Part shown: piece after piece, positions 1,350 to 33,271 of the stretch
Position numbering within the stretch: the stretch's first letter is position 1
Layout of the letters: each line of letters starts with the position of its first letter
Source: an uncultured Planctomycetia bacterium
GTDB taxonomy: Bacteria; Omnitrophota; Gorgyraeia; Taenaricolales; CAZCCH01
Direction: 5' to 3'
Assembly: GCA_964497315.1 (NCBI GenBank)
Contig: CAZCCH010000004.1
Span: forward strand, 18,307-82,306
DNA: 64,000 bases
Program-made: the position numbers and the translations under genes
Notes under the pieces: model-generated
What the model was told of the DNA's origin: nothing
Seen by the model: only the letters and a program-made list of their open reading frames with translations
Databases searched by the model: none

Positions 1350-1361
1350 TTCTTTACTCCT

Positions 1362-3376
<2,015 letters not shown>

Positions 3377-3402
3377 TTTTAATTCACTTCGCTAGTTAAA
3401 AT

Positions 3403-4434: not shown

Positions 4435-4452
4435 TTTAAATATAGTTATTAG

Positions 4453-10089: not shown

Positions 10090-10092
10090 AGG

Positions 10093-10635: not shown

Positions 10636-10661
10636 TTAATTAAATGCCTTTTTGTTACTCT

Positions 10662-11297: not shown

Positions 11298-11344
11298 GGC
11301 TGCACCTTTTGGTTTTTGTCATCATTTTCATATTTGGCTCCATT

Positions 11345-12820: not shown

Positions 12821-12825
12821 AACTT

Positions 12826-17285: not shown

Positions 17286-17300
17286 ATCGTCAATCCTGTT

Positions 17301-19214: not shown

Positions 19215-20192
19215 TTATCTTTTATACAAATAAAAGCATGCCGAATCGCCTTCTGCCTTTTTGTTGAGCTCAACGGCTGCACTGTCGAAATCCTTTATTT
19301 GTCTTTCTGAAAAAATAGACGCCTGAGGACTTACATAATAAGACTTGCTGTCCCTGAGGGGTATATCCCTACGGTATTGCTCACTACCCCAAAATTGAAA
19401 TGCAGTTGAGTCAAACGTAATATTCCTAAGTTCTAAACCTGTTTGTTCTGCTAAGATTTGAATACTTTTGGGTGTATGTAAAAAAAGATGACGCGGTACA
19501 TCAAGTTGAACCCAATCAACACCATATTTCCTCCATGCAAAACACCCAGATACGGGTGTCTTAATCAAAATACACCCCTTGGTCTCCAATCGGAGATATA
19601 ATTCCTTAAATACAGCTAAAGGTTCCTGCATGTGCTCAAAAGAATCGTGTAGCATAATAAAATCAAACTGTCCTTCTAGTTCGAATATAGACTTTTTAAA
19701 AATCCTTACACTGTTCTCATAGTGGATATCATCTCTGATAAAAGGATCTATCCCAGTAAGATTTGAAAATCCATATTTTGCTAGTTCGAGAAGGAGGCCT
19801 CCCCCGCCGCAACCTATATCCAGGATTTTTGACTCAAATTTTACTTTTGACATCCTTAGCCAATCAAAATAATGAGGTTTTTTCCTTCCAATAGAAAGCA
19901 ATATACCTATAAGGTTTTTCTCATAAAGCCAATACCTTGCCCTTTGGTGTCTGCGAAATCTTTTAAAAAAATTAGGCCTAGAATAATTTAACCCTTGAAA
20001 CGAATAGTAATCTTTGGGATAGTATTTCGTTGGGTTAGTTAGAGCTTCTTTTATCTGCAAGCATCCACATTTTGCACATTCAAAATATTCAAATTTATCT
20101 CTATAGCCAAACATCATTTCTTGTACGATGTAGGATTTATTATTGCTTACATTATTACATATTTTACAAATAGATATATCGCTTTGACTCAT
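19215..20192 (-). CDS. SAM-dependent methyltransferase with N-terminal zinc-ribbon (Methyltransf_13-like Zn domain plus class I MTase).
   Basis: The product is 325 aa. A CKICNN..(27 aa)..CAKCGC four-Cys ribbon is followed by the ILDIGCGGGGLLLELAK motif I. This layout is typical of NDP-sugar C- and O-methyltransferases. Confidence 0.6.
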   Translation of the reverse strand: MSQSDISICKICNNVSNNKSYIVQEMMFGYRDKFEYFECAKCGCLQIKEALTNPTKYYPKDYYSFQGLNYSRPNFFKRFRRHQRARYWLYEKNLIGILLSIGRKKPHYFDWLRMSKVKFESKILDIGCGGGGLLLELAKYGFSNLTGIDPFIRDDIHYENSVRIFKKSIFELEGQFDFIMLHDSFEHMQEPLAVFKELYLRLETKGCILIKTPVSGCFAWRKYGVDWVQLDVPRHLFLHTPKSIQILAEQTGLELRNITFDSTAFQFWGSEQYRRDIPLRDSKSYYVSPQASIFSERQIKDFDSAAVELNKKAEGDSACFYLYKR

Positions 20193-20228: not shown

Positions 20229-21668
20229 TCAATTAAGCGTAGCCTTTCTGGAATTCAATTTATTAACTATGGACCTTAAATTCTTTCGATAATAAAAGTT
20301 ACACATTGATATGGGGTGATGTTGTATATGATATTTTTTAAAATTTCCCTTATTTAAAGGTCCAACGATCTCTTTTTGGATTTCGTGGGTTAATTCAATA
20401 AACCTATCTGAAGAAATCTTGGTAAAGTTTTGTGTACAATCCGTACAATCATTCCATTCGATTTTATAACCTCTATTCAAGAGTTCTTTATAGGCACATG
20501 TTCCAGGCAAAGGCCAAAACTGGTTGAAATGAGCAAAATACGGCCTTATAGATTTAATAAAATTTGCAGACAGCATAAAATCTTCTTCTGTTTGGTCAAC
20601 ATAACCCTTGATCATATTTGCCCTAAAATTTAAACCTACGTCATGGGCCGCCTTTGCTGCTTCGCAATACCTTTCTACATTAATGTTCTTATTCATCCTA
20701 TTTAGTTCTTGTTGTGAACCTGATTCAAAACCGCATTCAACTAATACACAACCCGCGCTTTTCATTAATTTCAAAATTTTTGCTTTTGCCGCAACAGCTG
20801 TAAGCTGACAAATCCATTTGATCTTTTTATGCAAACCTTTTTTCTTAATCATTTCGCATATAGTCTCTGTTCTTTCCACATTGCTCAAAAACATATCGTC
20901 AGCAAAATAAATATAATCAACTTTGTAAGAGCAGATAATTTTTTCCATCTCTTCTAAGACATAATGTGGAGAATGATATCGCACCTTTCCTGGGAACATT
21001 AATGGGCCTGCACAATAATGGCACCTCCTAACACAACCGCGAGAAGAAAATATTGTTGTATGCTTACCTAGGAGATGTCGTTCTTCAACAGGTTTCAAAT
21101 AAAAGTTCATATTCAATAAACTTCTATCTGGAATAGGAATCTTATCTAAATTTTGTATCATTTCCCTTTTGCCAACAGTGTAGAAATCTTCACCCTTCCT
21201 GCTCCATACTCCAGGCATATCAAAAGAGGGAAGGTTATTGACTATATCTAACATGGTCATCTCTCCTTCCCCATCAACTACTAAGTCTATGTCTGGACAG
21301 CACATCAATGTCTCTTTTGGCTCAGCAGTAGGATGTGGTCCTCCTACAATATTAATAACATTAGGGTGAACTCGTTTAATCTTTTTAGAAAAATGTATAA
21401 CATCATACATAAGAGGTGTAGTAGCACTAAAACCGACAAGTTGAGGCTTAAATGATTTTATTCTTTCTAAAAGCTCTTGGTCTGTTGCGGCCAAGTCGTA
21501 ATTGTTCTTAATCAATAATTCATTCCTATCAGCTATCTTTACCTTATGTCCGTTATTTTGCAAGACTGTGGCAATATAAACTAATCCAAGTGGTGGAAAT
21601 GGGTGGTAACCATGAGAGAATTTATCTATTTTTTGAAGGACCAAAGGGTAAATAAAGAAAACGTTCAT
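20229..21668 (-). CDS. B12-binding-domain radical SAM enzyme (class B).
   Basis: The product is 479 aa. An N-terminal cobalamin-binding Rossmann region (PLGLVYIATVLQNNGHKVKIAD) is followed by the CxxxCxxC cluster motif SRGCVRRCHYC. Confidence 0.8.
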   Translation of the reverse strand: MNVFFIYPLVLQKIDKFSHGYHPFPPLGLVYIATVLQNNGHKVKIADRNELLIKNNYDLAATDQELLERIKSFKPQLVGFSATTPLMYDVIHFSKKIKRVHPNVINIVGGPHPTAEPKETLMCCPDIDLVVDGEGEMTMLDIVNNLPSFDMPGVWSRKGEDFYTVGKREMIQNLDKIPIPDRSLLNMNFYLKPVEERHLLGKHTTIFSSRGCVRRCHYCAGPLMFPGKVRYHSPHYVLEEMEKIICSYKVDYIYFADDMFLSNVERTETICEMIKKKGLHKKIKWICQLTAVAAKAKILKLMKSAGCVLVECGFESGSQQELNRMNKNINVERYCEAAKAAHDVGLNFRANMIKGYVDQTEEDFMLSANFIKSIRPYFAHFNQFWPLPGTCAYKELLNRGYKIEWNDCTDCTQNFTKISSDRFIELTHEIQKEIVGPLNKGNFKKYHIQHHPISMCNFYYRKNLRSIVNKLNSRKATLN

Positions 21669-21687
21669 TATAAATAACTTCCTATAT

Positions 21688-22794
21688 TTAGACTATAACC
21701 TCAGCTTTATGAATAAGCTTAAGTTTTTTAAAAATCTCTGCAGAATTTTTATCGTTTGTTATTATTGAATCATACTTTTTTCGCTTTTTTAGCACTCTCC
21801 AAATACACCTTAAAATGAAAAAATTATCAGGTAAAATGAATACCTTAATTCTAAAATGATCGCATAGTTTAATTTCTTTCGCTATATTCTTTTTAAAATA
21901 GACAAAAACACTTGAGGCCTTGTTGGCTTCCTGTCTTGTCTGCTTTTTAAGATTTTGCAAATATGAAGTATCTCTAGATGAAACTATATACACTAGGCGT
22001 TTCGGCTTATCCCATTTTTTATAAAACACTTCTGCATTTTTTGTGAAGATTCTTTTCGCATCGGTTGAGTCTGACCAAGAAGCACCTCCTATGTGCCATA
22101 CGTATGCCCTTTCTGCCATAACGCATCTATAGCCAATGGCCTGAATTCTCCTGCAAAAATCTACTTCTTCAAAATACCCCATGCCAAAGGTTTCATCAAG
22201 ATATCCAATTCTTTCTATTAGCTGACGCTTTATCAGCATGCAAAAGCCTTCACCGCTGTGAATCTCAATCGAGCGGCTATAAGAAGATTTTATTCTTTTT
22301 GCATATTCATCAATTGTTTCATTTGTTCTGGGATTTTTGCTAAAGGTATTACTAGCAGGTGTAACTACGCCTATTGACTCATCGCTTTCTGCGACAGCGA
22401 TTATTTCGCTTAACCAACCATCTGTGACTAATATATCATTATTTAAAAGACAAACATAATCGGCACTAGATTGCTTCATTCCTATATTCATACCTTTAGG
22501 ATATCCCTCATTGGCTTTATTAAATAAAACCGTAATACTTATCAAGTCATTGCCCTTTAGGTTTCTTAAATACCCCATAAAGTCTTCATTCTTGCTGCCA
22601 TTGTCAACAATTATAAGCCTGGTGGGTACGTGCGTATGTTTCAATATGCTCTCAATGCAAGGCTTGGTAAGCTTTAAGTATTCCCATGTTAAAAGAATTA
22701 AATCACAGCTTTTCGTCATTTTTACAAATTTCCCAATATTTTGCCCATCTTGAAAAATCAACCCAGGAAAAAAGAACTGCAAAAATAAACCCAT
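21688..22794 (-). CDS. GT2 glycosyltransferase, paralogue of the N-terminal module of 29308..31422.
   Basis: The segment CDLILLTWEYLKLTKPCIESILKHT..RLIIVDNGS has a DxD-type core. Its C-terminal FFILRCIWRVLKKRKKYD segment is colinear with the 29308 protein. The real start is probably the internal Met near 22719, because the upstream part overlaps the preceding gene. Confidence 0.7.
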   Translation of the reverse strand: MGLFLQFFFPGLIFQDGQNIGKFVKMTKSCDLILLTWEYLKLTKPCIESILKHTHVPTRLIIVDNGSKNEDFMGYLRNLKGNDLISITVLFNKANEGYPKGMNIGMKQSSADYVCLLNNDILVTDGWLSEIIAVAESDESIGVVTPASNTFSKNPRTNETIDEYAKRIKSSYSRSIEIHSGEGFCMLIKRQLIERIGYLDETFGMGYFEEVDFCRRIQAIGYRCVMAERAYVWHIGGASWSDSTDAKRIFTKNAEVFYKKWDKPKRLVYIVSSRDTSYLQNLKKQTRQEANKASSVFVYFKKNIAKEIKLCDHFRIKVFILPDNFFILRCIWRVLKKRKKYDSIITNDKNSAEIFKKLKLIHKAEVIV

Positions 22795-24280
22795 GCATAC
22801 CTTCTAGAAAACCTTTCTTTTTGATGTATAGCTTACGAAATATTTTTAAAGGTCTAAAAATTAATTTTTTACGCAACTTTTTATCTAGCATGCTTCCTTT
22901 TTGTTCATACATCTCAATGGCTTCATAGGTGGTATAACGATTGTGCCTGGCTATAAAGGTTTCTATATCCTTAAAAGGGTAATGCTCTATTTCTTCTTCT
23001 AGGGTTCCTATTTTGCCATTTACAATAAGTTCATGGTGCACTCTCCCTTTATATCTGGCAAATCCCTTTTTGAAAAAATGCAAAGAATAATGATACCACC
23101 CTCCGTATTTCATTGGACGTCCTAAAAAGAAATTTTTGCGTCTAAATTTATAGGCTACGAACTCCGTAGGACAGCTTAAAACTTCCATAACCTTCTTTTT
23201 AAAGGCCTCTGTGACTATTTCATCTGCGTCTAGCTGCACTATCCAATCTCCACTAGAGTTATCAATGCCTATATTTCTTTCCAGTCCAAAATCGCCCTCA
23301 AATTCATGCTGGATAACCTTGGCACCATATTCATTGCAGATATCAACTGTCTTATCAGTACTCATGCCGTCAACTACTACAATTTCATCTACCCATTTAA
23401 TAGACTCAAGGCAATTTCTGATTTTTTCTTCTTCATTTTTGACTATTAAAACTGCTGTAATTGCCTGCCTTTCATTATTCTGCATAGTGCTTCCTGCTTG
23501 TGTTTTTTGAACCATGGGTTGATTTTTATCTAATAGCATTTCCCACAATTTAGCAAAGGTTAAGATTTGATAAAATCCTGCAAACACAGCAAGGATAAAT
23601 CCCCAAGAACCATCCTTGTAACCTTTTTTTCCAACAAGACTGCGCCAGAATCTATCAATGGTCCTGCGTAGAGATCTACTAAAACCCATTTTTTTTTCTG
23701 CCCTGGCTTGCTTCTGCGCTTCTCTTGTTGTTTGATTATTGAGTTTGATTAAAAAATCTTCAATATCCCTGTAAGAGCAATGAATTATATCACTTTTTAA
23801 ATTGCCACATTCGCCTCCCATAAAGGCCCTCGGATGGACTTCTACCTCTTCATATCTGAATTCACTTTTTTTAAACAACTTAAGTTGTGCACTGGGGTAC
23901 CATCCGCCATATCTAACCCAATAATTACCAATGTAGTTTCTTCGCGCGATGTTATATCCATTCGCCGTTGGTGCAGTCTTTAATAAAGCTTCTATTTCAT
24001 CCATGAGTTCTGGCGTAGCCCGTTCATCAGCATCAAGGCTCAAAATCCATTCATTGTCTGCTAGTGAGTATGCGTAGTTTCTATGCTTGCCTTCTATGTC
24101 CATCTTGCGCTGATATACCTTAGCGCCAAGACTGCGGGCAATCTCTACTGTATCATCCTGGCTAAAATCATCCAGGACTACTACTTCATTCGCCCTTTTG
24201 ACAGATTCCAAGCATTCTTTAATTCTGTCTTTCTCATTCTTCGTGATTATTACAATTGATATTGGAATGTTTTCTTTCAT
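22703..24280 (-). CDS. Tandem double-GT2 glycosyltransferase (two GT-A domains in one polypeptide).
   Basis: The product is 525 aa. Two repeats of the GT2 opening are present: ISIVIITKNEKDRIKECLESV..DDFSQDDT and ITAVLIVKNEEEKIRNCLESI..VDGMSTDKT. Each is followed by LDADE or DADE catalytic motifs. Confidence 0.8.
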   Translation of the reverse strand: MKENIPISIVIITKNEKDRIKECLESVKRANEVVVLDDFSQDDTVEIARSLGAKVYQRKMDIEGKHRNYAYSLADNEWILSLDADERATPELMDEIEALLKTAPTANGYNIARRNYIGNYWVRYGGWYPSAQLKLFKKSEFRYEEVEVHPRAFMGGECGNLKSDIIHCSYRDIEDFLIKLNNQTTREAQKQARAEKKMGFSRSLRRTIDRFWRSLVGKKGYKDGSWGFILAVFAGFYQILTFAKLWEMLLDKNQPMVQKTQAGSTMQNNERQAITAVLIVKNEEEKIRNCLESIKWVDEIVVVDGMSTDKTVDICNEYGAKVIQHEFEGDFGLERNIGIDNSSGDWIVQLDADEIVTEAFKKKVMEVLSCPTEFVAYKFRRKNFFLGRPMKYGGWYHYSLHFFKKGFARYKGRVHHELIVNGKIGTLEEEIEHYPFKDIETFIARHNRYTTYEAIEMYEQKGSMLDKKLRKKLIFRPLKIFRKLYIKKKGFLEGMHGFIFAVLFSWVDFSRWAKYWEICKNDEKL

Positions 24281-25779
24281 TTCCTTCTATATATAATTAC
24301 CTTGTGAGGCCAATTCGCTACAGTCTTAAATTTATGATATCCTGGATCAGGCCGGTTCTCGAATCTTATATCAGGAACCGGCAGGTGTATTTTTTCATAT
24401 AAAGACTCTATTCTTTTCTGGTACCTACTACCAATAAATTCCTGAGGTTGCCAATCCCTGCGATAGACTATCCATTCCGGATAGGTTTCAGCCATAAAGG
24501 GTCCATTATCGACCTTCAAGTCAGTGTAGAATATCGCAGCGAAATCTCCATAATTCATTTTAACTGTATCGGCAGGATCAGCCTCTTTCTTTAAATATTC
24601 CACTATACCTTCGGCTGGACCATCATAGTCGTGATTTACCTCCCAGAGGTAATCATATAAATGCAACTTTGTTTGTTTTGCAAATGGTGCTCCGGTATGA
24701 AATATATTTGTAAAACCCACAAGTATAAACAAGCTAAATGCTAAGAGGCTCGATTGCTTTTGCCATCCGGCTAAGACAAGTGCCATTAACATAAAACATA
24801 ACGGTACTAAGTGGATTATATATCGCAACTGCCTTTCATCCGCTAATAATAGAAAAAAGATAGTAGAAATGATAACTATGATGGGTAACCATAAAGACGA
24901 TTTATCCAAAGGATCCTCTAAAACCGGAAACCGCCTCCTAATCCGAAAATACACTAAAGAAATAAATACAAATAGCAACGGGAATATATACTTGTTCAAA
25001 ACTCTGACATAGAATTCCAGGTGATCCTCTGTGCGCTCCAAAGAAAACTGCCCGCTATATTCGAAGCTACCTAAGTAAAGCAAGGAAGGTGCAGTCAATA
25101 TAAACACTGCAAACAATATAATTGATATTATTCTTAGCTTAAGTACATTTCTATGGAATAAAATATAATGAACGAAAATCGCACTCAAAACAGGAAAAAA
25201 TATCCCATAATTGCTATGAAATAAACACGCAGCAGAAATTATAAATCCGAAAGCAGGGGCAATTTTTCTATTCCGCAATAAGTCCAAATAGGATAAAACT
25301 AGCCATAGTGTAAAAAATATAGTCAGGGCATACCAGCGACACTGCCGTACATACAAAAGGAAGGGAACGAAAAATACCATTAAAGCAACACTAACGCGGG
25401 ATACAAATCTGTTTTTAAAAAGTCTATTAGCTAAAAGAAAACACATAGGCACACAACCAAGACCAAACAGCACAAAAACTAATCTGGCGGTAAATGTAGA
25501 TTCCCCGAATAACCAAAAGATACCTGCTACAAGATAGAATTGAAGCCAAGCAGCGTATTTCCAACCTTTATTTACACATGGATCTTCATATATATTCCTA
25601 ACTAAATTTTTACCATCATATGCCTGTGGAATTCCGAACTTGAGAGTATTTCTAGCCAAAACCGCCGTCTCTGCCTCATCCTGCCAAAGATATACATTGC
25701 CTAAATTGGTAAATAAAAGTACTCCTGCCAATAGACAAAGTAAAACCAATATTAAGTCTCTTCTGCCATGCTCCATCAT
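24277..25779 (-). CDS. ArnT/PMT-like GT-C glycosyltransferase (polyprenyl-phosphate-sugar dependent; GT83/GT39-like).
   Basis: The product is 500 aa and polytopic. The first periplasmic loop reads LWQDEAETAVLARN (compared with ArnT LWQPDETRYAEISREM), followed by the WLFGESTF segment. Confidence 0.7.
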   Translation of the reverse strand: MMEHGRRDLILVLLCLLAGVLLFTNLGNVYLWQDEAETAVLARNTLKFGIPQAYDGKNLVRNIYEDPCVNKGWKYAAWLQFYLVAGIFWLFGESTFTARLVFVLFGLGCVPMCFLLANRLFKNRFVSRVSVALMVFFVPFLLYVRQCRWYALTIFFTLWLVLSYLDLLRNRKIAPAFGFIISAACLFHSNYGIFFPVLSAIFVHYILFHRNVLKLRIISIILFAVFILTAPSLLYLGSFEYSGQFSLERTEDHLEFYVRVLNKYIFPLLFVFISLVYFRIRRRFPVLEDPLDKSSLWLPIIVIISTIFFLLLADERQLRYIIHLVPLCFMLMALVLAGWQKQSSLLAFSLFILVGFTNIFHTGAPFAKQTKLHLYDYLWEVNHDYDGPAEGIVEYLKKEADPADTVKMNYGDFAAIFYTDLKVDNGPFMAETYPEWIVYRRDWQPQEFIGSRYQKRIESLYEKIHLPVPDIRFENRPDPGYHKFKTVANWPHKVIIYRRK

Positions 25780-26468
25780 GATGTAAACCTCAAGATTATC
25801 AATTCTACAATCGTAATTATTACATTCAGCGGTAAATCTCCCTTTGCGATTCCCGCTTTCCTAGGAAGATAATCCACCTCTACTTCTTTAAAGTTACAGC
25901 CATTGCGTTTTGCCTTAAATATGACCTCAGCATCCACGCATATACCTCTTGATGTAATTTCCATATTTTTAAATACATCTTTTTTGAAAAGTTTTACCCA
26001 GTTTACATCTTTTAAAGTAATACCAAATAGAAAAAACATTGCCAACCTAAAAACTTTGGTTTTTATCCTTCGAAGTAAAGGATCTGTGTGTCTATATTTA
26101 CGACAGCCCACAATGACATCAAAATCTTTCCATTCTATAAATTTATCTAAATCATCTATGTTGAATTGTCCATCCGAAGGCACAAGTGTTAAATAATCGT
26201 ACCTTGCTGACAATATGCCTGATTTCTGCGCCCCGCCATAACCTATATTAAAAGGATGGTGAATTACTTTAATCATTGCATGTTCGCTAGACAGCCTTTC
26301 TGCAATTTTACGAGTTGCGTCTTTACTGCCATCATTGACTATAAGTATTTCATATTCTTTTGCTAGGGAAGGTAGCTTATTTCTAACTGCTTCAACTACA
26401 ACTTCTAATAACTCTTGTTCATTAAAGGCTGGTATAACTACTGTTAAATTCGGAAGTAGCTCTTTCAT
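25776..26468 (-). CDS. GT2 polyprenyl-phosphate glycosyltransferase, DPM1/GtrB-like, soluble catalytic domain.
   Basis: The product is 230 aa. It has LTVVIPAFNEQE...EILIVNDGSKDAT and DGQ motifs. The C-terminal TM hairpin is absent. Confidence 0.7.
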   Translation of the reverse strand: MKELLPNLTVVIPAFNEQELLEVVVEAVRNKLPSLAKEYEILIVNDGSKDATRKIAERLSSEHAMIKVIHHPFNIGYGGAQKSGILSARYDYLTLVPSDGQFNIDDLDKFIEWKDFDVIVGCRKYRHTDPLLRRIKTKVFRLAMFFLFGITLKDVNWVKLFKKDVFKNMEITSRGICVDAEVIFKAKRNGCNFKEVEVDYLPRKAGIAKGDLPLNVIITIVELIILRFTS

Positions 26469-26470
26469 AT

Positions 26471-27877
26471 CTAAATAAAATCCTCTCGCGTTTTATCTTT
26501 AGAACAAACTAAATGGCTAATTAAATAAAAACCTCCCCGCATGGATTCCAAAGGGTATCTAATGAAAAATTTGGCCCTGGAAGCTATATACTTTGGCCTG
26601 AGATAGTATTCTTTTAAAAACCTACCCTCCCATGCAGTTAATTTCTTCTCAAATTCAACATCTTTTAAACGGTTTTTGTATGGAAAAAGCGAAAAATCTA
26701 TTTTCTCTTTCATGTCATTGAAAAAGGCTGTACCAGGATATGGAACAGTTTTAAAAATGGTACAGTAGTCTAGTTTGCACTTCTTTGCCAACTTTAGTGT
26801 CTCATTGAAATCTTCTTCTGTTTCAATAGGAGCTCCAACCATAAAAAACCCTGCTACTTCTATTTTGGCCTTATTAACAAGATTTATTTTCTCAGGTATC
26901 TCTTCCACCTTGTATGACTTTTTGTAATAATCTAAAATTTTCTGCGAACCGCTTTCTATTCCTATGTACAACCGCTTACAACCTGCCTTTTTCATTGCCC
27001 CAAGCATATTCCCATCAAGGGTATTAATTCTACTTAAAGCTGCCCAATTGACCTTTAGGCCTTTTTCTAATATCAAGTCACATATCTTTATAACGCGTTC
27101 TTTTTTGACCGTGAAGGTATCATCTAGAAATCTAATGTTTCTTATTTTAAAGCGCTGGACGATTTCCTCTATTTCTGCAACTACACTTTCTGCTGAACGA
27201 AATGCAAGTCTATTTCCGTATGTCCGTACACAATACGTACAAGCATAGGGGCAACCCCTCGAAGTAAGGATTGTAGTAAATGGTTTGCCTAAAAAAAGAT
27301 CATTGTAAAGTCTATTGTCTATGAGGCTACGCTCAGGATGGGGTAATGAGTCTAAATCCTTTATTCTGCCTCTGGGTTCATTAATGGTTACATTGCCGTT
27401 ACGCTTAAATGCAATACCGTTTATATTGCCTATGTCCTCATTTTTAATTAGGCTATCGCAAAAAACTGAGAATGTCTCCTCGGGTTCATCCATTATTATA
27501 ATATCTACCTTAGATTTATTGAGTATTTCTTCAGGAAATAGGGTTGGATAATAACCTATTGCTATAAACTTTGTAGTTACAAGTTTGCCTTTTAAAAAAT
27601 CCAAAACTTCTATATCTTCACCAAATATCTCAAAGCCTGGCATAAATACTAAAAGGTCTGGCTTTGCTTCTTTTAGCCTTTCAGAAACCGCCTCAGCATT
27701 CATTCCCTGGGCGATTGCATCGATTATCTCTGTTTCTACACCCTCCTTTTTATGCGCTACTGCAGCTAAATACATCAACTCTATTGGAGGAAACAAAAAA
27801 TTTGGTGCATTATAAGAACACATGTATCTACGAATAACTTTATTTCTATTTGGTAGGTTTAAAAATGTTATTTTCAT
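26471..27877 (-). CDS. B12-binding-domain radical SAM enzyme.
   Basis: The product is 468 aa. It has an N-terminal B12-like domain and the cluster motif SRGCPYACTYC. Confidence 0.8.
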   Translation of the reverse strand: MKITFLNLPNRNKVIRRYMCSYNAPNFLFPPIELMYLAAVAHKKEGVETEIIDAIAQGMNAEAVSERLKEAKPDLLVFMPGFEIFGEDIEVLDFLKGKLVTTKFIAIGYYPTLFPEEILNKSKVDIIIMDEPEETFSVFCDSLIKNEDIGNINGIAFKRNGNVTINEPRGRIKDLDSLPHPERSLIDNRLYNDLFLGKPFTTILTSRGCPYACTYCVRTYGNRLAFRSAESVVAEIEEIVQRFKIRNIRFLDDTFTVKKERVIKICDLILEKGLKVNWAALSRINTLDGNMLGAMKKAGCKRLYIGIESGSQKILDYYKKSYKVEEIPEKINLVNKAKIEVAGFFMVGAPIETEEDFNETLKLAKKCKLDYCTIFKTVPYPGTAFFNDMKEKIDFSLFPYKNRLKDVEFEKKLTAWEGRFLKEYYLRPKYIASRAKFFIRYPLESMRGGFYLISHLVCSKDKTREDFI

Positions 27878-27889
27878 AGTGCAATCTTT

Positions 27890-29311
27890 TTAGATGCCCC
27901 CTGCTATGGCTAGAAAACCATCGAAGTAACGTTTGATATCATTCAAACTTCTAATTTGTTTAATCTGTTGAAAAATATATTTTGGCCTGAGATAAAACCT
28001 TTTATGTATAACAGAAGATATTGAGCGTAATTGTTCTTCAGTCATCCCTTTGGGTATATAAGCAATATCTGCCGAATCCGGGATGTTCAACTGGCAAAAT
28101 TGACTCCATTTTCTATGAAGAAGCGTCCCTTCTTTTGATGCAATATCAAACAATTCATTTCCAGGGTATAGCGTCACATTATAAAAATTGGCTATATCTA
28201 TAGGTAAGGATTTAGCAAATTCCAAGCTGCGGTTTATGGAATCGAGGGTATCTCCTGGCATGCCAATAACAAAAAATGCCCTCACGTTAAGCCCTGCCTT
28301 TTTTGCCTGCTTAACTGCTCTGGAGCTATCCTCTATGGTCATGCCCTTCTTCATGCTAGCTAAGATAGCTGGATCTCCTGATTCTAGGCCGAATCCTATC
28401 TGCCAGCACCCTGCTTGTTTCATAAGTCTTAAAAGTTCTTCATTCACACAGCGCACATGTGAGAGACAAGACCAGATAATATCTAATTTCTTTTTTATTA
28501 TCTGTTGGCATATAGCCATAGCTCTTTCTTTATTAACTGTGAAAGTATCATCGAAGAATTTTATCTCTTTAACACCATATTTAAACTTAAGCTCTTCTAT
28601 TTCCTCTAATACGTTTTGTACTGAACGAGCTCTAAACTTATTGCCAAATACCTTCCTATCGCAAAATGTACATCCAAAGGGACACCCCCTACTGGTCATC
28701 ATATGTGCAAAAGGCAACTTTCTATATGAAGCAGCAACAGGTTTGTAATACTTTAAGTCAGGATAGAGATGGCGTGCCGGAGGTGGTAATTTATCCAAAT
28801 TGTCTATATAACCAGCTCTTTGTGTTATTTTTATACGACCATTTTCTTTATACGCTACACCTTCTATCTTTTCTAGTTGCAGGGAATTTTCTTGTATTTG
28901 TTTTGCTAATTCCAAAAATGCATACTCGCCTTCTCCTATAATACCTATATCAAAATTAGAATTCTGCATTGCTTCTTCTGGAATAGCGGTCATGTGGGGT
29001 CCTCCTAATACCAGAAAAACCCCTGACAATGCATCTTTTATCTTTTTTGCAACTGAACAGGCATTCGGATAAGAAAGTGTTGTGGCGGTTATTCCAATAA
29101 TTTGCGGGTTAGCCTCCTTAAGCATACCAACTAACTCCTCTTCTTGTGTATTTAAAGGACGACTGTCGATTATGCTAATATCAAAACCTTCTCTTTCTAA
29201 AACTGCAGCTATATAACCCAGCCCCAAAGATGGTAAAACATTGGCTATCCTCTTAAATTTTCCAGCATATTCTGGCCTAGATAAAGGGGGGTCTATTAAG
29301 CAAATCTTCAT
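27890..29311 (-). CDS. B12-binding-domain radical SAM enzyme.
   Basis: The product is 473 aa. An N-terminal B12-like domain (LGLGYIAAVLEREGFDISIID) is followed by SRGCPFGCTFC. Confidence 0.8.
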   Translation of the reverse strand: MKICLIDPPLSRPEYAGKFKRIANVLPSLGLGYIAAVLEREGFDISIIDSRPLNTQEEELVGMLKEANPQIIGITATTLSYPNACSVAKKIKDALSGVFLVLGGPHMTAIPEEAMQNSNFDIGIIGEGEYAFLELAKQIQENSLQLEKIEGVAYKENGRIKITQRAGYIDNLDKLPPPARHLYPDLKYYKPVAASYRKLPFAHMMTSRGCPFGCTFCDRKVFGNKFRARSVQNVLEEIEELKFKYGVKEIKFFDDTFTVNKERAMAICQQIIKKKLDIIWSCLSHVRCVNEELLRLMKQAGCWQIGFGLESGDPAILASMKKGMTIEDSSRAVKQAKKAGLNVRAFFVIGMPGDTLDSINRSLEFAKSLPIDIANFYNVTLYPGNELFDIASKEGTLLHRKWSQFCQLNIPDSADIAYIPKGMTEEQLRSISSVIHKRFYLRPKYIFQQIKQIRSLNDIKRYFDGFLAIAGGI

Positions 29312-31422
29312 AATTCAACCCTTGTTAATTCCATATTGGCGCAATGGTTAACTACCTCGGCAGGTGTGGTAACCCAAGCTTTCGTATCTTTAGTAACAAT
29401 TTCCAAAAAACTTCTATATATATCAAAAATCTTTCCTTTCATGCCAAAGTGAGAATCTGGATGTATATTTAAAGTAGCCAAGCCACCCATTTCCTTTATC
29501 CAGCTTAATTTATTAAGCCATAATTTCAAAATTTCCTCTGGTGTCTTTTTCAAAAAAACACAAGTAGAGTCTTGTGGCAAGGTTAATGGTAATTCCATAA
29601 GTTTACCCAAACGATATGGAAAAATGCTGCAGCAACCGCTTCTATAAGGAGGCCTTGCAGAAATTTCAGTATCTGGGAATGTAGAATCGTATTCAAAAAA
29701 TTCTGAAATTGCACGCAATAAAGTCGGCGTCCTCAACAATGAAGGTGATCTAAAACCCTTCATGTTGTATTCCTTTATTGTATTTCGATATTTCTCTAAC
29801 CTAGAACATATCTCTGATTGCGAAAGATAAGGTAAACTTTCATCGTGGTTATCGCCATGACAGGCTACTTCATTTTCTCCTTTAAGTACTTCATGGAAAA
29901 ACCGCCCACCAAACTCTACATTCTTCAATACAACAAACCAGCAGGATTTAACACCAAATTCTGCTTCAAGGTGTAGGAATTTTTCTGCTGGCTTAAAACC
30001 TTTGTTTGTATCTATGTCATGCGTTAAACATACAGCATATTTTTTTTCTTCGGGCCATTTAATCTGACTAAGTTTACCTCTTATAGTCCTTTTTAGTAAA
30101 TCAACTGTTATGTCTTCAGGCCAATTTGGAAAGTTTACACGTTGTCTTTTTAAACTATGTAAACCTGTCAGCCACTGGGCAATCAAAACCCTTATTGAAC
30201 CAGGTACTAAATGATAGTGAAAAGGTAAGTATGAAGTCCAGGGTCTTTTGGATTTTAGGTATCTTTCTGCTAAGATGCAATCTATGGTATCATTTATGTC
30301 CAAATCAAGATTTAGTCTTTCTTTAAAGTTAACATATTTGGCAGGGATTCTCCGTAACGCCTCAAGCACCCCTTTGGTTATGCTCAAAGTTACCCTTGCC
30401 TTATTCAAGAATCTTACTTTATTAAACTGCTCTGCCAGTTTTACATCTGGACAAAAAATGATATCATAACGTTTTTTCTTTACACTGCTTCGCCATAGAC
30501 AGCGTAGATTAAAAAATTGTGCAGGAAAATCCATGGTACGTAAATCACTATGAGAAATATTATTAGATAAACCATTTCTAACTTGTGATTTGCTTGTAAA
30601 ATCTACAAAATTACCTTGCCTGGCTATTTCAAGGCATTTAAGATGAAAATCTCTTAAAAAATCTAAATCTGTGTTTGAAGTAACTGCCATAATTCTTAAT
30701 GGCCTGCCCCATTTTTGATAAAACCTTTGTCTACTCTCGTCAAATTTCTTCTGGCGGTCACTTAATTTTTGAACAGATTTGTGTTCATAATGATGAACGT
30801 AAGCACCCTTTGCAATTACACAAATAAACCCAATCTCTTTGGCCCTATAAGAATAATCTGTATCTTCAAAAAAGAACCCACTTAAAAAATCATCTAGATA
30901 TCCTATTTTTTCTATTAACTGGCGTTTAACCAACATGCAAAAACCTATCGTACTGCCGATTTCGCGAAATCCACCACCTTCTAACTTGAGTAGTTCTTTA
31001 GATAAAGTATCTACTGTCTCAGATCCCTTAAGGCAAATACCAAAGTTATTGCTATTTGGATTAACTATGCCTATGTCTTCCCTTAGGTTTGCAACCCGAA
31101 TCATTTCAGAAAGCCACCCCTTAGTTACTAAGGTATCATTATTGAGAATACAGGAAAAAGGTGCGCTTGAGGCCTTCAGTCCTACATTATTTCCACCTAC
31201 AAACCCGAGGTTTTCTTTATTCGTAATCAATTTAATTTCAACATGTTCTGTGGACTTAAGGTTTTGTAGGTATAGCTTAGTTAAATTATCGCTATTATTA
31301 TCTACAATAAGAAGGCGTGAGGGGCATGTGGTTTTTTTTAAGACGCTTTCAATGCAAGGCTTTGTATATTCAAGGTTATTCCAAACCAAAACTATAATAT
31401 CGCAAATAGGAGTTTTCTTCAT
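29308..31422 (-). CDS. Bifunctional GT2 glycosyltransferase (N) plus ArnD/NodB-like polysaccharide deacetylase/deformylase domain (C).
   Basis: The product is 704 aa. The N-terminal ~360 aa are colinear with the 21688 GT2. The C-terminus carries the CE4/ArnD-type motifs CLTHDIDTNKG (compared with ArnD RIDVDT) and VACHGDNHD. Confidence 0.65.
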   Translation of the reverse strand: MKKTPICDIIVLVWNNLEYTKPCIESVLKKTTCPSRLLIVDNNSDNLTKLYLQNLKSTEHVEIKLITNKENLGFVGGNNVGLKASSAPFSCILNNDTLVTKGWLSEMIRVANLREDIGIVNPNSNNFGICLKGSETVDTLSKELLKLEGGGFREIGSTIGFCMLVKRQLIEKIGYLDDFLSGFFFEDTDYSYRAKEIGFICVIAKGAYVHHYEHKSVQKLSDRQKKFDESRQRFYQKWGRPLRIMAVTSNTDLDFLRDFHLKCLEIARQGNFVDFTSKSQVRNGLSNNISHSDLRTMDFPAQFFNLRCLWRSSVKKKRYDIIFCPDVKLAEQFNKVRFLNKARVTLSITKGVLEALRRIPAKYVNFKERLNLDLDINDTIDCILAERYLKSKRPWTSYLPFHYHLVPGSIRVLIAQWLTGLHSLKRQRVNFPNWPEDITVDLLKRTIRGKLSQIKWPEEKKYAVCLTHDIDTNKGFKPAEKFLHLEAEFGVKSCWFVVLKNVEFGGRFFHEVLKGENEVACHGDNHDESLPYLSQSEICSRLEKYRNTIKEYNMKGFRSPSLLRTPTLLRAISEFFEYDSTFPDTEISARPPYRSGCCSIFPYRLGKLMELPLTLPQDSTCVFLKKTPEEILKLWLNKLSWIKEMGGLATLNIHPDSHFGMKGKIFDIYRSFLEIVTKDTKAWVTTPAEVVNHCANMELTRVEL

Positions 31423-31447: not shown

Positions 31448-33271
31448 TTAAATATCTCTAAACTGCATATCATACAACTTCTTATACAATCCATCTGTTT
31501 CCATAAGGTCGTCGTGTTTTCCAATGGCTTCTATTTTACCTTTTTCCAACACAATAATCTTATCTGCATTACGCACAGTAGATAACCTATGGGCTATAAC
31601 AAAAACGGTTCTGTTCTTCATTAATTTATTAAGGGCTTCTTGAACTAATTGTTCCGATTCAGTATCTAACTGAGAGGTAGCTTCATCCAAAATTAGTACA
31701 GGCGGGTTTTTCAACAATGCCCGTGCGATTGACAACCTTTGCCTTTCTCCTCCTGAAATAGTATGCCCCCTATCTCCTATAAACGTATCGTAGCCCTCTG
31801 GGAATTTTGTTATAAAATTATGCGCATTAGCAGCTCTGGCTGCGTTTATAACGTCTTTCTCCGATGCATCTTCTCTGCCATAGGAAATATTGGCAAAGAT
31901 TGTATCATTAAACAATATTGTTTCCTGAGTAACTAAACCTATTTGTGCACGTAGTGAATCTAAGCTAGCAACTCTTATATCCTGGTTATCTACTAATATT
32001 CTTCCTGATGTAGGATCGTAAAAGCGAGGGATTAAATTTACAAAGGTGCTCTTGCCTGCACCGCTTGGTCCTACGATAGCGATGATTTCACCTTTTTTAA
32101 CTTCGATAGATATAGAGTCTAAGGTCGGTTTTGTATCATAGCTAAAATTAACGTTATCAAAAACTATTTTTTCATGTAATGGTTTTAGCTTAACTGCACG
32201 CTTTGCCTCTATCACTGTGGGCTTTTCATCTAGGATATGATATACCCTCTCACTCGCTGAAATTGCCTGTTGGTTTATCATATGAACTTTACTGAGACGT
32301 TTTATTGGTCTTATTAATGAAAGCAAGGCTGCCAAAAAGGCGATAAATGCTCCTGGGCTTAAGCCTTCATATATAACCTGTTTTCCACCAAGCCACAAAA
32401 CTACTGCTACAGCTAACATGCTCAAAAATTCCGTAATAGGCCTTACGGAATTCATCCTTTTAACGGATTTCATCGAAAGTCTGTAAAATTTCTGGTTTTC
32501 TTTGCGGAATTTTTCAGATTCAGATTTCTCCATAGTAAAGGCTTTGACAACCTGCATACCAGATATAGCCTCAAGCAAAAGGGAATTTATATCTGCTGTC
32601 TTTACCTGGCTTTGCGTAGTAATTCTTTTTAGGCGGCTGCCTATTTTTATAATTGGATAAGCCATTAAAGGGAGCAGGGCAGCTATAATAAATACAAAAC
32701 TCCAGGAAATTGAGAAGTAATTTCTAATCACAAGAAGCATTGTTAAATACACTAAAAATTGCACTGGCTGATAAAATATTTCAGTTAAACCCTCAGCAAT
32801 TGCCTGCTGTATCAAAGCGGTATCATTGGTTATCCTACTCATTAGAGTAGCAGTTTTATTACGATGATAAAAATTCATGGATAACCCCAGTAATTTGTTG
32901 TAAATTCTATTTTGAACATCCCTCACTGACCTTTTGCTGGCAGCTACCATCAAATAAGAATGAGCAAATACAAGGACTTCCTTAAGCACAACCATGCCCA
33001 TAACAATTAATATGATATAGTTTAATAGAGTACCTCGTGGCAGGGTATTGATTTTATTCACTAACCCCTTGACTATTTCTGGTATGGCATTAGAATTTGG
33101 TAAGATAATTTCTTTACCGGCAAGTATCTTATCTACCAATGGAATTATCATGCCCACAGAAACACCATCAAACAGCGATGACAAAATCATACATACCACC
33201 GCAAATGCCAGAATTTTGGTGTGGGGACCTATGAATTTTAACATGCGAAAATAATTTTTGATATTAATCAT
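31448..33271 (-). CDS. ABC transporter, fused permease/ATPase, MsbA-like lipid/glycolipid exporter.
   Basis: The product is 607 aa. Six predicted TM helices are followed by a Walker A GPSGAGKST, the ABC signature LSGGERQRLSIARAL and a Walker B ILDEATS. Confidence 0.85.
   Translation of the reverse strand: MINIKNYFRMLKFIGPHTKILAFAVVCMILSSLFDGVSVGMIIPLVDKILAGKEIILPNSNAIPEIVKGLVNKINTLPRGTLLNYIILIVMGMVVLKEVLVFAHSYLMVAASKRSVRDVQNRIYNKLLGLSMNFYHRNKTATLMSRITNDTALIQQAIAEGLTEIFYQPVQFLVYLTMLLVIRNYFSISWSFVFIIAALLPLMAYPIIKIGSRLKRITTQSQVKTADINSLLLEAISGMQVVKAFTMEKSESEKFRKENQKFYRLSMKSVKRMNSVRPITEFLSMLAVAVVLWLGGKQVIYEGLSPGAFIAFLAALLSLIRPIKRLSKVHMINQQAISASERVYHILDEKPTVIEAKRAVKLKPLHEKIVFDNVNFSYDTKPTLDSISIEVKKGEIIAIVGPSGAGKSTFVNLIPRFYDPTSGRILVDNQDIRVASLDSLRAQIGLVTQETILFNDTIFANISYGREDASEKDVINAARAANAHNFITKFPEGYDTFIGDRGHTISGGERQRLSIARALLKNPPVLILDEATSQLDTESEQLVQEALNKLMKNRTVFVIAHRLSTVRNADKIIVLEKGKIEAIGKHDDLMETDGLYKKLYDMQFRDI

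Follow-up and report, generated by a model that had tools for sequence, protein, structure and literature searches.

Four cobalamin-type radical SAM genes in an Omnitrophota envelope-sugar locus point to a widespread radical sugar-tailoring step

What would four cobalamin-type radical SAM enzymes do among genes for envelope sugars? The question is raised by an uncultured marine Omnitrophota bacterium, in which a giant LPS/envelope-glycan locus of about 56 kb lies within the window analysed here (the whole stretch of DNA, 64,000 nucleotides). The four open reading frames are where an earlier note on this DNA had placed them, all on the minus strand, as are the other genes given with coordinates below. 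R1 (20229..21668, 479 aa; PF02310 78.7 bits, PF04055 75.2 bits), R3 (27890..29311, 473 aa; PF02310 81.2 bits) and R4 (46997..48442, 481 aa; PF04055 100.3 bits, PF02310 62.6 bits) encode class-B (B12-domain) radical SAM enzymes, and R2 (26471..27877, 468 aa; PF04055 85.1 bits, PF02310 30.8 bits) a variant B12-type enzyme. R4 lies outside the interval of the earlier finding (20229-29311).

The CxxxCxxC clusters that had been quoted, SRGCVRRCHYC (R1), SRGCPYACTYC (R2), SRGCPFGCTFC (R3) and SRGCSFKCTFC (R4), were all present in the translations, and the Pfam Radical_SAM domain PF04055 scored 75-110 bits across the four. The N-terminal cobalamin-type Rossmann domain also claimed for them is carried by all four, with PF02310 matches above the gathering score of 32.1 bits in R1, R3 and R4 and just under it in R2, where the motifs are degenerate (GGPH replaced by IGYYPT, GEGE by MDEPEE). 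The R2 orthologs in a DPANN archaeon (46%) and in a relative within Omnitrophota (51%) keep these variant motifs, together with an N-terminal RRYMCSYNxPN sequence. R3 carries canonical GGPH, GEGE and CPFGCTFCDR motifs, the first two being invariant across its family. Pairwise identities of 26-36%, with R1 the most divergent (26-34% to R2-R4) and R4 and R3 sharing 36%, are those of old, anciently diverged paralogs. No membrane segments were found in R1-R4, and their products are soluble.

Open reading frames in the locus are packed in an operon-like manner, with 4-nt overlaps, and the order GT2b-R3-R2 (gaps of -4 and 12 nt) and GT2a-R1 (19 nt), read in the sense of transcription, agrees with the earlier observation that a GT2 gene directly precedes one or two of the radical SAM genes. 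As GT2a (21688..22794; PF00535 69.8 bits) shares 92 nt with the gene before it, it probably starts further downstream than its open reading frame suggests. The two GT2s are paralogs as proposed, GT2a and the N-terminal half of GT2b sharing 41% identity over 347 aa, but their "WbbL-like" label rests on 33.5 bits against a rhamnosyltransferase model with a cut-off of 200. GT2b is in fact a 704 aa fusion protein, GT2b-deAc (29308..31422), in which the WbbL-like GT2 (residues 1-346; PF00535 58.3 bits) is followed by a CE4-type deacetylase domain. The PF01522 match of this domain is sub-threshold (19.9 bits); the C-terminal half matches the deacetylase 3rxz (E 1.2e-6), contains the CE4-like motifs THDID, HGDNHD, FRSPS and LNIHPD, and has as its ortholog a stand-alone PF01522 protein in a related locus, L088.

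The context of R3 and R2 proved more specific than the earlier note had seen, comprising a polyprenyl-phosphate sugar synthase and a GT-C transferase in addition to the deacetylase. The first is a small PpgS/Dpm1-like GT2 (25776..26468, 230 aa, one C-terminal TM segment at 207-226; PF00535 90.6 bits), whose best NCBIfam match is PpgS (70.9 bits, cut-off 370), followed by weaker matches to DPM-like, AglJ and ArnC models, and which is predicted from its sequence to be a polyprenyl-phosphate (N-acetyl)hexosamine synthase. The second is an ArnT/PMT_2-like polytopic protein (24277..25779, 500 aa) with at least 10 hydrophobic segments, a sub-threshold PF13231 match (23.8 bits) and weak ArnT (19.7 bits, cut-off 567) and Agl23 matches. 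Next to it is a double-domain GT2 (22703..24280, 525 aa; two PF00535 stretches, 137.6 bits) with a half-length ortholog (58%) in L088. Ahead of the GT2b-R3-R2 block, at a distance of 25 nt, lies the gene for an MsbA-like ABC exporter (31448..33271; TIGR02203 MsbA 528.8 bits, cut-off 602; PF00664 and PF00005), a candidate flippase for lipid-linked glycans or lipid A. No flippase of the GtrA or ArnE/F type was identified.

Directly downstream of R1 lies a class I SAM methyltransferase gene (Methyltransf_23; 19215..20192; PF13489 75.7 bits). R4 is preceded, with gaps of 1-3 nt, by genes for an ArnC-like polyprenyl-phosphate sugar synthase with two C-terminal TM segments (GT2c, 49215-50186; ArnC 219 bits, cut-off 529) and a class I methyltransferase (48444-49211; PF08241 78.5 bits), and is directly followed by one for an AsnB-type glutamine amidotransferase (45019..46962; PF00733 347.9 bits; TIGR03108 EPS amidotransferase 655 bits, cut-off 817). 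Elsewhere in the window are a trio of WbpB/WbpD/WbpE-like amino-sugar genes (34184..36989) encoding a GFO oxidoreductase (PF01408/PF02894), a hexapeptide acyltransferase (PF00132) and an ArnB-like DegT aminotransferase (PF01041 410 bits), an ArnA-like formyltransferase gene, and a fifth radical SAM gene, of the SPASM type (62601..63731; PF04055 66.5 bits, PF13186 42.9 bits). No cobalamin riboswitch, transport gene or synthesis gene was found within the window.

The association with glycan genes is real and extends beyond the window. L088 (R3 ortholog 72%) retains the deacetylase, R2 (51%), the PpgS-like GT2 (57%), R3 and, directly after it, the GT-C protein (62%); L087 (65%) combines a B12-rSAM enzyme, a small GT2, R3, a GT2, a SPASM enzyme, a GT87-like protein and a PMT-type GT-C. 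R2 orthologs adjoin R3 orthologs in L007, L013 and L088, and the pair is adjacent also in DPANN archaea. A survey of 79 loci, drawn from many phyla, placed glycan-type neighbours within five genes of the enzyme in 65 loci, a small Dpm1-like GT2 being present in 40 and a polytopic protein (at least 8 TM segments) in 43. The 119 neighbours within two genes included 22 radical SAM proteins, 18 DegT aminotransferases and 14 GT2s. For R4-type orthologs (34 loci), a small Dpm1-like GT2 lay within five genes in 17 and a WbbL-like GT2 in 7. The R3-type cassette of most other phyla consists of a small radical SAM protein, DegT, R3, a SPASM enzyme (11 of the 45 related loci have one close to the R3-type enzyme) and a polytopic protein without the deacetylase, which makes the deacetylase step lineage-specific. 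R3-type enzymes are also fused to a Dpm1-like GT2 (P0033, P0054), DegT (P0452), a class I methyltransferase (P0424) or a discoidin domain (P0420), and R1-type enzymes to a class I methyltransferase of the same kind as 19215..20192 (P0305) or a GT4 N-domain (P0284). Synteny and fusions thus bear out the proposed tie to glycan assembly. The arrangement is not peculiar to this locus, several B12-rSAM paralogs per glycan locus being common in uncultured anaerobes; nor are R1-R4 a peculiarity of this genome, since they belong to a large family, with 16,017 cluster representatives, that of R1 being smaller (158 matches at E<=1e-10). None of the relatives found was a cultured organism whose glycan structure is known.

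None of the named families tried (HpnJ, BchE, AprD4) accommodates R1-R4, all models scoring far below cut-off. Grouping with BchE or lipid cyclases together with an unconserved glycosyltransferase neighbourhood, which had been named as speaking against a role in glycan tailoring, was not what we found, since the top NCBIfam matches, BchE and HpnJ, reach 25-40% of their cut-offs and the neighbourhood is conserved. In sequence-similarity networks, C-methyltransferases are present in every characterised group of B12-rSAM enzymes, and HpnJ falls into one cluster with Fom3 and MoeK5, both of them C-methylases. The two-domain architecture of R1-R4 is that described for GenK, GenD1/GntE, Fms7, MoeK5 and Fom3 (CMP-linked substrate), enzymes that modify (amino)sugars or phospho-linked compounds. 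GFO dehydrogenases, DegT aminotransferases and class I N/O-methyltransferases, the partners of such natural-product C-methyltransferases in pathways like those for gentamicin and moenomycin, all adjoin R1-R4, and both an AsnB-type amidotransferase and a lipid-phospho-linked sugar, as in moenomycin, have their counterparts near them. However, GenK/MoeK5-type enzymes belong to actinomycete secondary-metabolite clusters, whereas the setting of R1-R4 is the primary assembly of envelope glycans, alongside polyprenyl-phosphate sugar synthases and GT-C proteins.

A parallel for that context is offered by the polyprenyl-phosphate amino-sugar systems ArnC/ArnD/ArnT, Bordetella LgmA/LgmC/LgmB, Francisella FlmF2/NaxD/FlmK and mycobacterial PpgS/Rv3779. 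Like the conserved module of CE4 deacetylase, R2, PpgS/Dpm1-like GT2, R3 and GT-C transferase, they combine a small Dpm1-like GT2 bearing C-terminal TM segments, a polytopic GT-C and an enzyme that deacetylates or deformylates the lipid-bound sugar, although the window matches the ArnC, ArnT and PpgS models at family level only. We know of none among them with a radical SAM enzyme. In the literature searched, we found no paper that connects loci for LPS, O-antigen or polysaccharides with radical SAM enzymes of the cobalamin type, in line with the earlier statement that such chemistry is essentially undescribed for LPS.

We give about even odds (roughly 0.5) to the reading that R1-R4 tailor the sugars of this envelope locus in an Arn/Lgm/Flm/Ppg-type pathway with inserted radical steps, C-methylation being their likeliest chemistry. 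Substrate, step order, cobalamin use and methyl transfer are read from context as follows. The small GT2 would put HexNAc on polyprenyl phosphate at the cytoplasmic face, and the CE4 domain would take off the N-acetyl group. The 5'-deoxyadenosyl radical of R3 would then abstract hydrogen from an unactivated sugar carbon, to which, most likely, a methyl group from methylcobalamin would be transferred, yielding a C-methyl amino sugar. A second radical step would fall to R2 and may not need cobalamin. The still-activated polyprenyl-phosphate sugar would be flipped, and the GT-C protein would transfer it onto lipid A, core or O-chain; the substrate of the radical step may be either the polyprenyl-phosphate sugar or a nucleotide sugar. 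R4, with its ArnC-like GT2, methyltransferase and amidotransferase, and R1, with its WbbL-like GT2 and methyltransferase, may carry out analogous tailoring of other residues. Because a periplasmic GT-C donor would have to keep its glycosyl-phosphate bond, methylation, deoxygenation and epimerisation would be favoured over ring contraction.

The structure predicted for R3 (pLDDT 93) has the class-B fold, but its nearest solved structure is AprD4 (PDB 6fd2), the radical SAM 1,2-diol dehydratase of apramycin biosynthesis, which according to a review does not bind cobalamin; the methylases MgmA, TsrM and CysS come next. R1-R4 might accordingly use the 5'-deoxyadenosyl radical only, with a structural Rossmann domain, and dehydrate or oxidise the diol of a sugar to give a keto-deoxy product; amination of this product by DegT would open an anaerobic route to amino-deoxy sugars that needs no SDR 4,6-dehydratase. 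We consider this unlikely, if worth weighing. The protein met most often right beside R3-type enzymes is DegT (directly upstream in 13 of 45 loci, within three genes in 24 of 45), which is also fused to one of them; SDR dehydratases make up only 2 of the 119 neighbours; and the AprD4 model aligns with R2 over residues 26-386, its degenerate, sub-threshold N-domain included. At the position of TokK Trp215, after the cluster motif, where a hydrophobic residue is typical of radical methylases (review), R3 has the polar Arg219, preceded by an invariant Asp218; the equivalent of the lower-axial Trp76 of TokK is Leu, hydrophobic as in radical methylases (review). However, the AprD4-family model reaches only 64-113 bits against a cut-off of 500, and AprD4 matches the radical SAM half of R3 only, similarity to the N-domain being undetectable (score about 0). 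That domain, at 81 bits on PF02310, aligns in sequence with the cobalamin domains of OxsB, TsrM, TokK and CysS (the MgmA match starts only at position 102), and GGPH and GEGE are common to R3 and the cobalamin-dependent TokK and MgmA. The ketone for DegT, moreover, could come from the SPASM enzymes of the same cassettes, in the manner of BtrN.

Improbable, in our view, is a HpnJ/OxsB-like contraction, in which GT2 adds HexNAc, CE4 deacetylates and the pyranose ring is then turned by the radical SAM enzyme into a smaller, carbocyclic one of the cyclitol type; such a route to hopanoid cyclitol ethers has been proposed for HpnI-HpnK-HpnJ. R2, R3 and R4 all match HpnJ best in NCBIfam, in alignments of nearly full length (182-230 bits), the large network cluster also holds non-methylating members, and the order GT2, deacetylase, B12-rSAM is parallel. 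HpnK, however, is presumably not a CE4 enzyme, and the R2/R3 module adds the polyprenyl-phosphate sugar synthase and GT-C. The scores are far below the HpnJ equivalog cut-off of 577.6, HpnJ function itself rests on knockout only, no hopanoid genes were found among the window ORFs of at least 150 aa scanned, most related loci are without the deacetylase, and a ring-contracted residue would be no glycosyl-phosphate donor for the conserved GT-C partner.

We give slightly less credence again to lipid targets, with the polyprenyl carrier or the acyl/isoprenoid chains of an envelope glycolipid being methylated or cross-linked in the manner of HpnP/HpnR and of B12-rSAMs that modify GDGTs. Lipids are the substrates of many characterised enzymes in the main network cluster, the ladderane model gives 101-152 bits, Dpm1-like GT2 and GT-C substrates bear polyprenyl chains and the locus contains an FPP-synthase-like gene; yet this gene resembles housekeeping IspA, lipid-synthesis genes are not consistently adjacent, R1-R4 lack membrane segments, and synteny and fusions indicate sugar enzymes (DegT, GT2, GT4, the carbohydrate-binding discoidin domain). 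It is very unlikely that the adjacency is meaningless for function, the radical SAM genes belonging to some other pathway (cofactor, RiPP) and only being housed in a locus that is large and variable: B12-rSAM proteins are very numerous and Omnitrophota surface-glycan loci are hypervariable cargo regions, but start and stop codons overlap with glycosyltransferase genes, the partners are shared by loci from both bacterial and archaeal phyla, and several fusions to glycan enzymes are independent.

Built as they are into lipid-carrier glycosylation modules, R1-R4 point to a widespread, uncharacterised radical sugar-tailoring step.

The window has a GC content of about 36%, and all of its genes lie on the minus strand. 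Housekeeping genes (pgk, gap, fmt, priA and uracil-DNA glycosylase) occupy positions 165-8071, and the remainder of the window, from about 8 kb onwards, is an unbroken envelope-glycan locus, encoding among others GT2, GT4, GT9 and GT-C glycosyltransferases, a WecA-type initiating transferase, a Wzy_C protein, an MsbA-like exporter, DegT/GFO/hexapeptide amino-sugar proteins, ATP sulfurylase, two AsnB-type amidotransferases and several class I methyltransferases. Between gap and fmt, two GalT/HIT-family paralogs of 47.7% identity stand in tandem (2378-4434, minus strand). Since several marine metagenome assemblies contain identical copies of the locus, and the closest named relatives of the phosphoglycerate kinase encoded by pgk are all Candidatus Omnitrophota (65-67% identity), the sequence identifies the host as an uncultured marine Omnitrophota bacterium. 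No cobalamin riboswitch, nor any other Rfam family, was found in the window.

Within the glycan locus lie R1 (20229-21668), R2 (26471-27877), R3 (27890-29311) and R4 (46997-48442), all on the minus strand, which an earlier note on this DNA had read as four B12-binding radical SAM enzymes (B12-rSAMs). The CxxxCxxC cluster motifs quoted there were found exactly in all four translations, and each product matches the Radical_SAM family PF04055 at 75-110 bits (gathering score, GA, 29.5). The N-terminal cobalamin-type domain claimed for all four holds for R1, R3 and R4, which score 78.7, 81.2 and 62.6 bits against the B12-binding family PF02310, whereas R2, at 30.8 bits, falls just under the GA of 32.1. 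Pairwise identities among R1-R4 are 27-36%, a divergence that argues for old paralogs and not recent duplicates. The predicted structure of R3 packs a five-strand, five-helix Rossmann domain against a TIM-like barrel, the class I architecture of class B (cobalamin-domain) radical SAM enzymes that TokK, TsrM, OxsB and MgmA also show. The R3 N-domain has GGPH and GEGE in common with TokK, and across the R3 family GEGE is invariant throughout, as are the two glycines of GGPH. Judged by its motifs, R2 belongs to a subfamily of its own, in which G(Y/H)(Y/L)PT stands in place of GGPH and (D/N)EP(E/D) in place of GEGE, and the N-terminus carries a conserved RRYMCSYNxPN; these variants are common to orthologs in an Omnitrophota relative and a DPANN archaeon.

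A repeated order, in which a WbbL-like GT2 precedes a B12-rSAM, had also been described and is borne out: in the direction of transcription, GT2b (at 29308) is followed by R3 and R2, and GT2a (at 21688) by R1. The two GT2s are paralogous, as proposed, with 41% identity over 347 residues between GT2a and the N-terminal half of GT2b, a 704-aa protein in which the GT2 is fused to a CE4-type deacetylase domain. The transcriptional order of the block is GT2b-deacetylase, R3, R2, a PpgS-like GT2, a GT-C, a double GT2, GT2a, R1 and a class I methyltransferase, with intergenic gaps of -4 to 36 nt except for one 92-nt ORF overlap. This overlap, of the double GT2 ORF with that of GT2a (22703-22794), is probably a mis-set start, the true start of GT2a lying downstream of the called one, because another assembly calls a product of 343 aa instead of the 368 aa found here.

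The set of genes conserved around R3 and R2 comprises a membrane-anchored Dpm1/PpgS-like GT2, a putative CE4-type deacetylase and a candidate GT-C transferase. In the window, the Dpm1/PpgS-like GT2 (25776-26468, minus strand; PF00535, 90.6 bits) has PpgS as its best match and one TM segment, and an ArnC-like GT2 (49215-50186, minus strand; 219 bits on the ArnC model) has two; both matches are at family level only, under the equivalog cut-offs, and both proteins carry a C-terminal membrane anchor. The candidate GT-C (24277-25779, minus strand) has at least 10 hydrophobic segments and scores 23.8 bits on PMT_2 (GA 26.1) and 19.7 bits on ArnT. The CE4-like domain matches PDB 3rxz (E 1.2e-6) and bears the catalytic-type motifs THDID, HGDNHD, RSP and LNIHPD; a stand-alone ortholog of this domain matches PF01522. 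No GtrA (PF04138) or EamA-type (ArnE/F) flippase was found among window ORFs of at least 150 aa, and an MsbA-like ABC exporter (31448-33271, minus strand) adjoins the module, its 529 bits on the MsbA model being near-threshold (cut-off 602). The predicted make-up of the conserved set matches the architecture of the polyprenyl-phosphate amino-sugar side-branch systems ArnC/ArnD/ArnT, LgmABC, FlmF2/NaxD/FlmK and PpgS/Rv3779, none of which is known to include a radical SAM enzyme.

Four independent lines of sequence comparison indicate that the glycan context of R1-R4 is meaningful. Close relatives retain the partner genes in shuffled order. One related locus (L088, R3 ortholog 72% identical) encodes a stand-alone CE4 deacetylase, an R2 ortholog (51%), a PpgS-like GT2 (57%), the R3 ortholog, a GT-C (62%) and a WbbL-like GT2; another (L087, R3 ortholog 65% identical) encodes a B12-rSAM, a small GT2, the R3 ortholog, a GT2, a SPASM rSAM, a GT87-like protein, a PMT GT-C, a small GT2, DegT, GFO and a hexapeptide transferase. 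A scan of species-representative genomes recovered 560 or more relatives; all of the top 80 come from MAGs, of Omnitrophota, Planctomycetota, Elusimicrobiota, Desulfobacterota, Nitrospirota, CPR bacteria, and DPANN and other archaea. In a census of the genes up to five positions away from 45 R3-type and 34 R4-type copies, glycan-type neighbours occur at 65 of the 79 loci; a small Dpm1-like GT2 is present in 40/79, a polytopic protein of at least 8 TM segments in 43/79, DegT in 26/79 and another B12-rSAM in 25/79, and in 13 of the 45 R3-type loci the gene directly upstream of the R3-type copy is DegT. Among 119 neighbours within two genes, a Pfam census counted 22 radical SAM proteins (10 with SPASM), 18 DegT, 14 GT2 and 9 methyltransferases.

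Partner domains are also found fused to these enzymes: R3-type proteins to a Dpm1-like GT2 (P0033 and P0054), DegT (P0452), a class I methyltransferase (P0424) or a discoidin domain (P0420), and R1-type proteins to a GT4 N-domain (P0284) or to a class I methyltransferase (P0305), the latter mirroring the adjacency of R1 and a methyltransferase gene in the window. A cassette recurrent in other phyla comprises a small rSAM, DegT, an R3-type enzyme, a SPASM rSAM and a 570-590-aa polytopic protein without a Pfam match, whose acidic first loop is GT-C-like. As the family is very large (16,017 cluster representatives at 50% identity, E<=1e-30), the association is no peculiarity of the window.

Pfam-less polytopic proteins of 570-590 aa, with 8-13 hydrophobic segments, recur beside R3-type genes in loci L022 (7900-9657), L034 (7210-8919), L035 (12562-14283), L090 (6239-8008) and L009 (7104-8807). 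Those of L022, L034 and L035 are 40-50% identical to one another, with an N-terminal GPDxPIYxAYTASIVxDGDLN motif in L022 and L035, whereas the L090 and L009 proteins are similar to each other alone (25%); the proteins probably represent one or more unrecognised GT-C-like families. Giant polypeptides with 4-5 tandem B12-binding/radical SAM modules were also seen (P0386, 2331 aa; P0421, 2096 aa; P0406; P0423). The Pfam scan covered P0386 and P0421, and P0386 also carries a SPASM domain. Such polypeptides fit an Omnitrophota preprint in which radical SAM comes up solely as a domain of giant proteins.

The strongest rival to cobalamin-dependent chemistry is a cobalamin-independent, AprD4-like dehydration or oxidation that would make a keto group for DegT. 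It would explain the DegT adjacency and the DegT fusion, as well as the degenerate motifs of R2, and AprD4 is the best structural match, despite scores of only 64.1, 89.9, 112.8 and 92.6 bits for R1, R2, R3 and R4 on the AprD4 family model (NF033070; cut-off 500). The sequence match to AprD4 is restricted to the radical SAM half of R3; the N-domain aligns in sequence with OxsB, TsrM, TokK and CysS, and with MgmA only from position 102. Profile alignments with TokK, OxsB and TsrM, used for the residue check that the earlier note had called for, gave a mixed picture of the cobalamin site: the lower-axial position, Trp76 in TokK, is Leu in R3, hydrophobic as in radical methylases, whereas the position of TokK Trp215 is Arg219, polar and unlike radical methylases. 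This polar residue fits AprD4-like chemistry. A DxHxxG motif is absent, which is what base-off/His-off cobalamin binding would lead one to expect. According to a 2026 review, no sequence feature tells methylating from non-methylating members, and AprD4 is a cobalamin-free look-alike, so the fold alone is no proof of cobalamin binding. The strong conservation of the cobalamin-domain signature in R1, R3 and R4 nevertheless weakens the AprD4-like reading, and in these three proteins, where the cobalamin-type fold is predicted, cobalamin binding is plausible.

When profile scores were judged against the NCBIfam equivalog cut-offs, no equivalog claimed any of R1-R4. Scores on HpnJ (TIGR03471) were 142.9, 182.2, 229.9 and 200.9 bits for R1 to R4, short of the cut-off of 577.6, and those on BchE (TIGR02026) were 146-196 bits, short of 481.35; the PhpK and Sden_1168 P-methylase models gave 104-177 bits and the ladderane model 101-152 bits. 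The JGI labels "anaerobic Mg-protoporphyrin cyclase" on homologs are over-annotations. A grouping with BchE or lipid cyclases outside a conserved glycosyltransferase context, named in the earlier note as the outcome that would count against its proposal, was not found, the BchE and HpnJ scores being under cut-off and the glycan context conserved.

In the mechanism that we propose, a HexNAc would be loaded onto polyprenyl phosphate and deacetylated, and R3 and R2, which are soluble, would act at the cytoplasmic face on unactivated carbons of the lipid-linked sugar. The modified sugar would next be flipped, for which the adjacent MsbA-like exporter is a possible candidate, and the GT-C would attach it to lipid A, core or O-chain. 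R4, encoded between the ArnC-like GT2 plus a methyltransferase and an AsnB amidotransferase, and R1, between the WbbL-like GT2 and a methyltransferase, would probably tailor other residues likewise. The radical step is more likely to be C-methylation, deoxygenation or epimerisation than ring contraction. An HpnJ-type contraction is suggested by the GT2-deacetylase-rSAM order, and is less likely because the conserved GT-C partner requires an intact glycosyl-phosphate donor; the Pfam families of a hopanoid context (shc, hpnH, hpnG), which HpnJ would call for, were absent from the scanned window ORFs of at least 150 aa. Modification of a lipid chain by R1-R4 is also less likely; chance adjacency to the glycan genes is less likely as well, set against the conserved context.

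The GFO dehydrogenase, DegT, class I methyltransferase and AsnB amidotransferase partners parallel the sugar-tailoring logic of gentamicin and moenomycin, an analogy that favours C-methylation. The same chemistry is favoured because C-methylases are present, according to a review, in every characterised SSN group of B12-rSAMs, and because HpnJ falls into one cluster with Fom3 and MoeK5, both C-methylases.

Other genes of the window may also bear on glycan decoration. On the minus strand, 9187-13983 encodes a stand-alone homocysteine S-methyltransferase (9187-10089), a HAD phosphatase (10093-10635), a pyruvate-kinase barrel fragment fused to a nucleotidyltransferase (11345-12820) and a TagF-like glycerophosphotransferase (12826-13983), which may form a phospho-glycerate or glycerol-phosphate decoration pathway. 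Beside it (14063-19199, minus strand), an ATP sulfurylase gene precedes those of two alkaline-phosphatase-superfamily proteins with membrane anchors, one phosphodiesterase-like (15210-17285) and one sulfatase/LtaS-like with five N-terminal TM segments (17301-19199), which hints at sulfate or phospho-substituent transfer to the glycan. A second tailoring block (57575-63731, minus strand) encodes a VimE-like UDP-diacetamido-glucuronate deacetylase/DUF7033 protein (57575-59014), a GNAT (59011-60018), an ArnA-like formyltransferase (60015-60938), a class I methyltransferase (60935-61669), a glucuronyl C5-epimerase-like protein (61663-62628) and a radical SAM/SPASM enzyme (62601-63731). In an unusual fusion (40083-41867, minus strand), residues 1-330 form a WecA/MraY-type polyprenyl-phosphate HexNAc-1-P transferase, and residues 362-592 correspond to the N-terminal TM plus CoA_binding_3 region that WbaP/WcaJ-type phosphoglycosyl transferases typically have. 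The MsbA homolog and an FPP-synthase-like gene (36922-37809, minus strand; 238 bits, cut-off 275) may be housekeeping genes captured mid-locus. The trans-prenyl synthase encoded by the latter was considered as a sign of a special lipid anchor and rejected, as it scores as an ordinary FPP synthase.

The B12-rSAM class is well known, and its sugar-acting members are known from antibiotic pathways. A review counts more than 80,000 B12-dependent radical SAM enzyme sequences, their largest groups being without known function. In agreement with the claim that such chemistry is essentially undescribed for LPS-type glycans, the literature searched yielded no paper that connects O-antigen, LPS, polysaccharide or C-methyl sugars with cobalamin radical SAM enzymes, and no description of B12-rSAMs systematically embedded in primary envelope-glycan machinery (polyprenyl-phosphate sugar/GT-C modules). 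The locus is an example of a broad, orphan and testable association of B12-rSAMs with envelope glycans. With a probability of roughly 40%, it reflects a widespread unrecognised step in uncultivated anaerobes (Omnitrophota, Planctomycetota, Desulfobacterota, CPR bacteria, DPANN and other archaea), in which cobalamin-dependent rSAMs, commonly present in multiple copies at a locus and in some cases fused to a Dpm1-like GT2 or DegT, would C-alkylate or otherwise radically remodel polyprenyl-phosphate- or nucleotide-linked amino sugars before GT-C transfer, so that branched-chain sugars would be part of the LPS, S-layer or cell-wall glycans.

If true, radical SAM chemistry would for the first time be assigned to primary envelope polysaccharide biosynthesis, and such surfaces would be cobamide-dependent. 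For several large orphan subfamilies, the locus and its relatives provide a concrete and testable context, the proposed tailoring of envelope sugars linked to a lipid carrier, and the conserved partners (Dpm1-like GT2, DegT, SPASM rSAM and GT-C, including the Pfam-less polytopic family) offer minimal cassettes for heterologous reconstitution. Confirmation would yield soluble enzymes of about 470 aa for site-selective sugar alkylation, add radical C-H functionalisation to the reactions by which LPS and cell-wall glycans are made, and tie the surface structure of host-dependent nanobacteria and archaea to cobamide availability.
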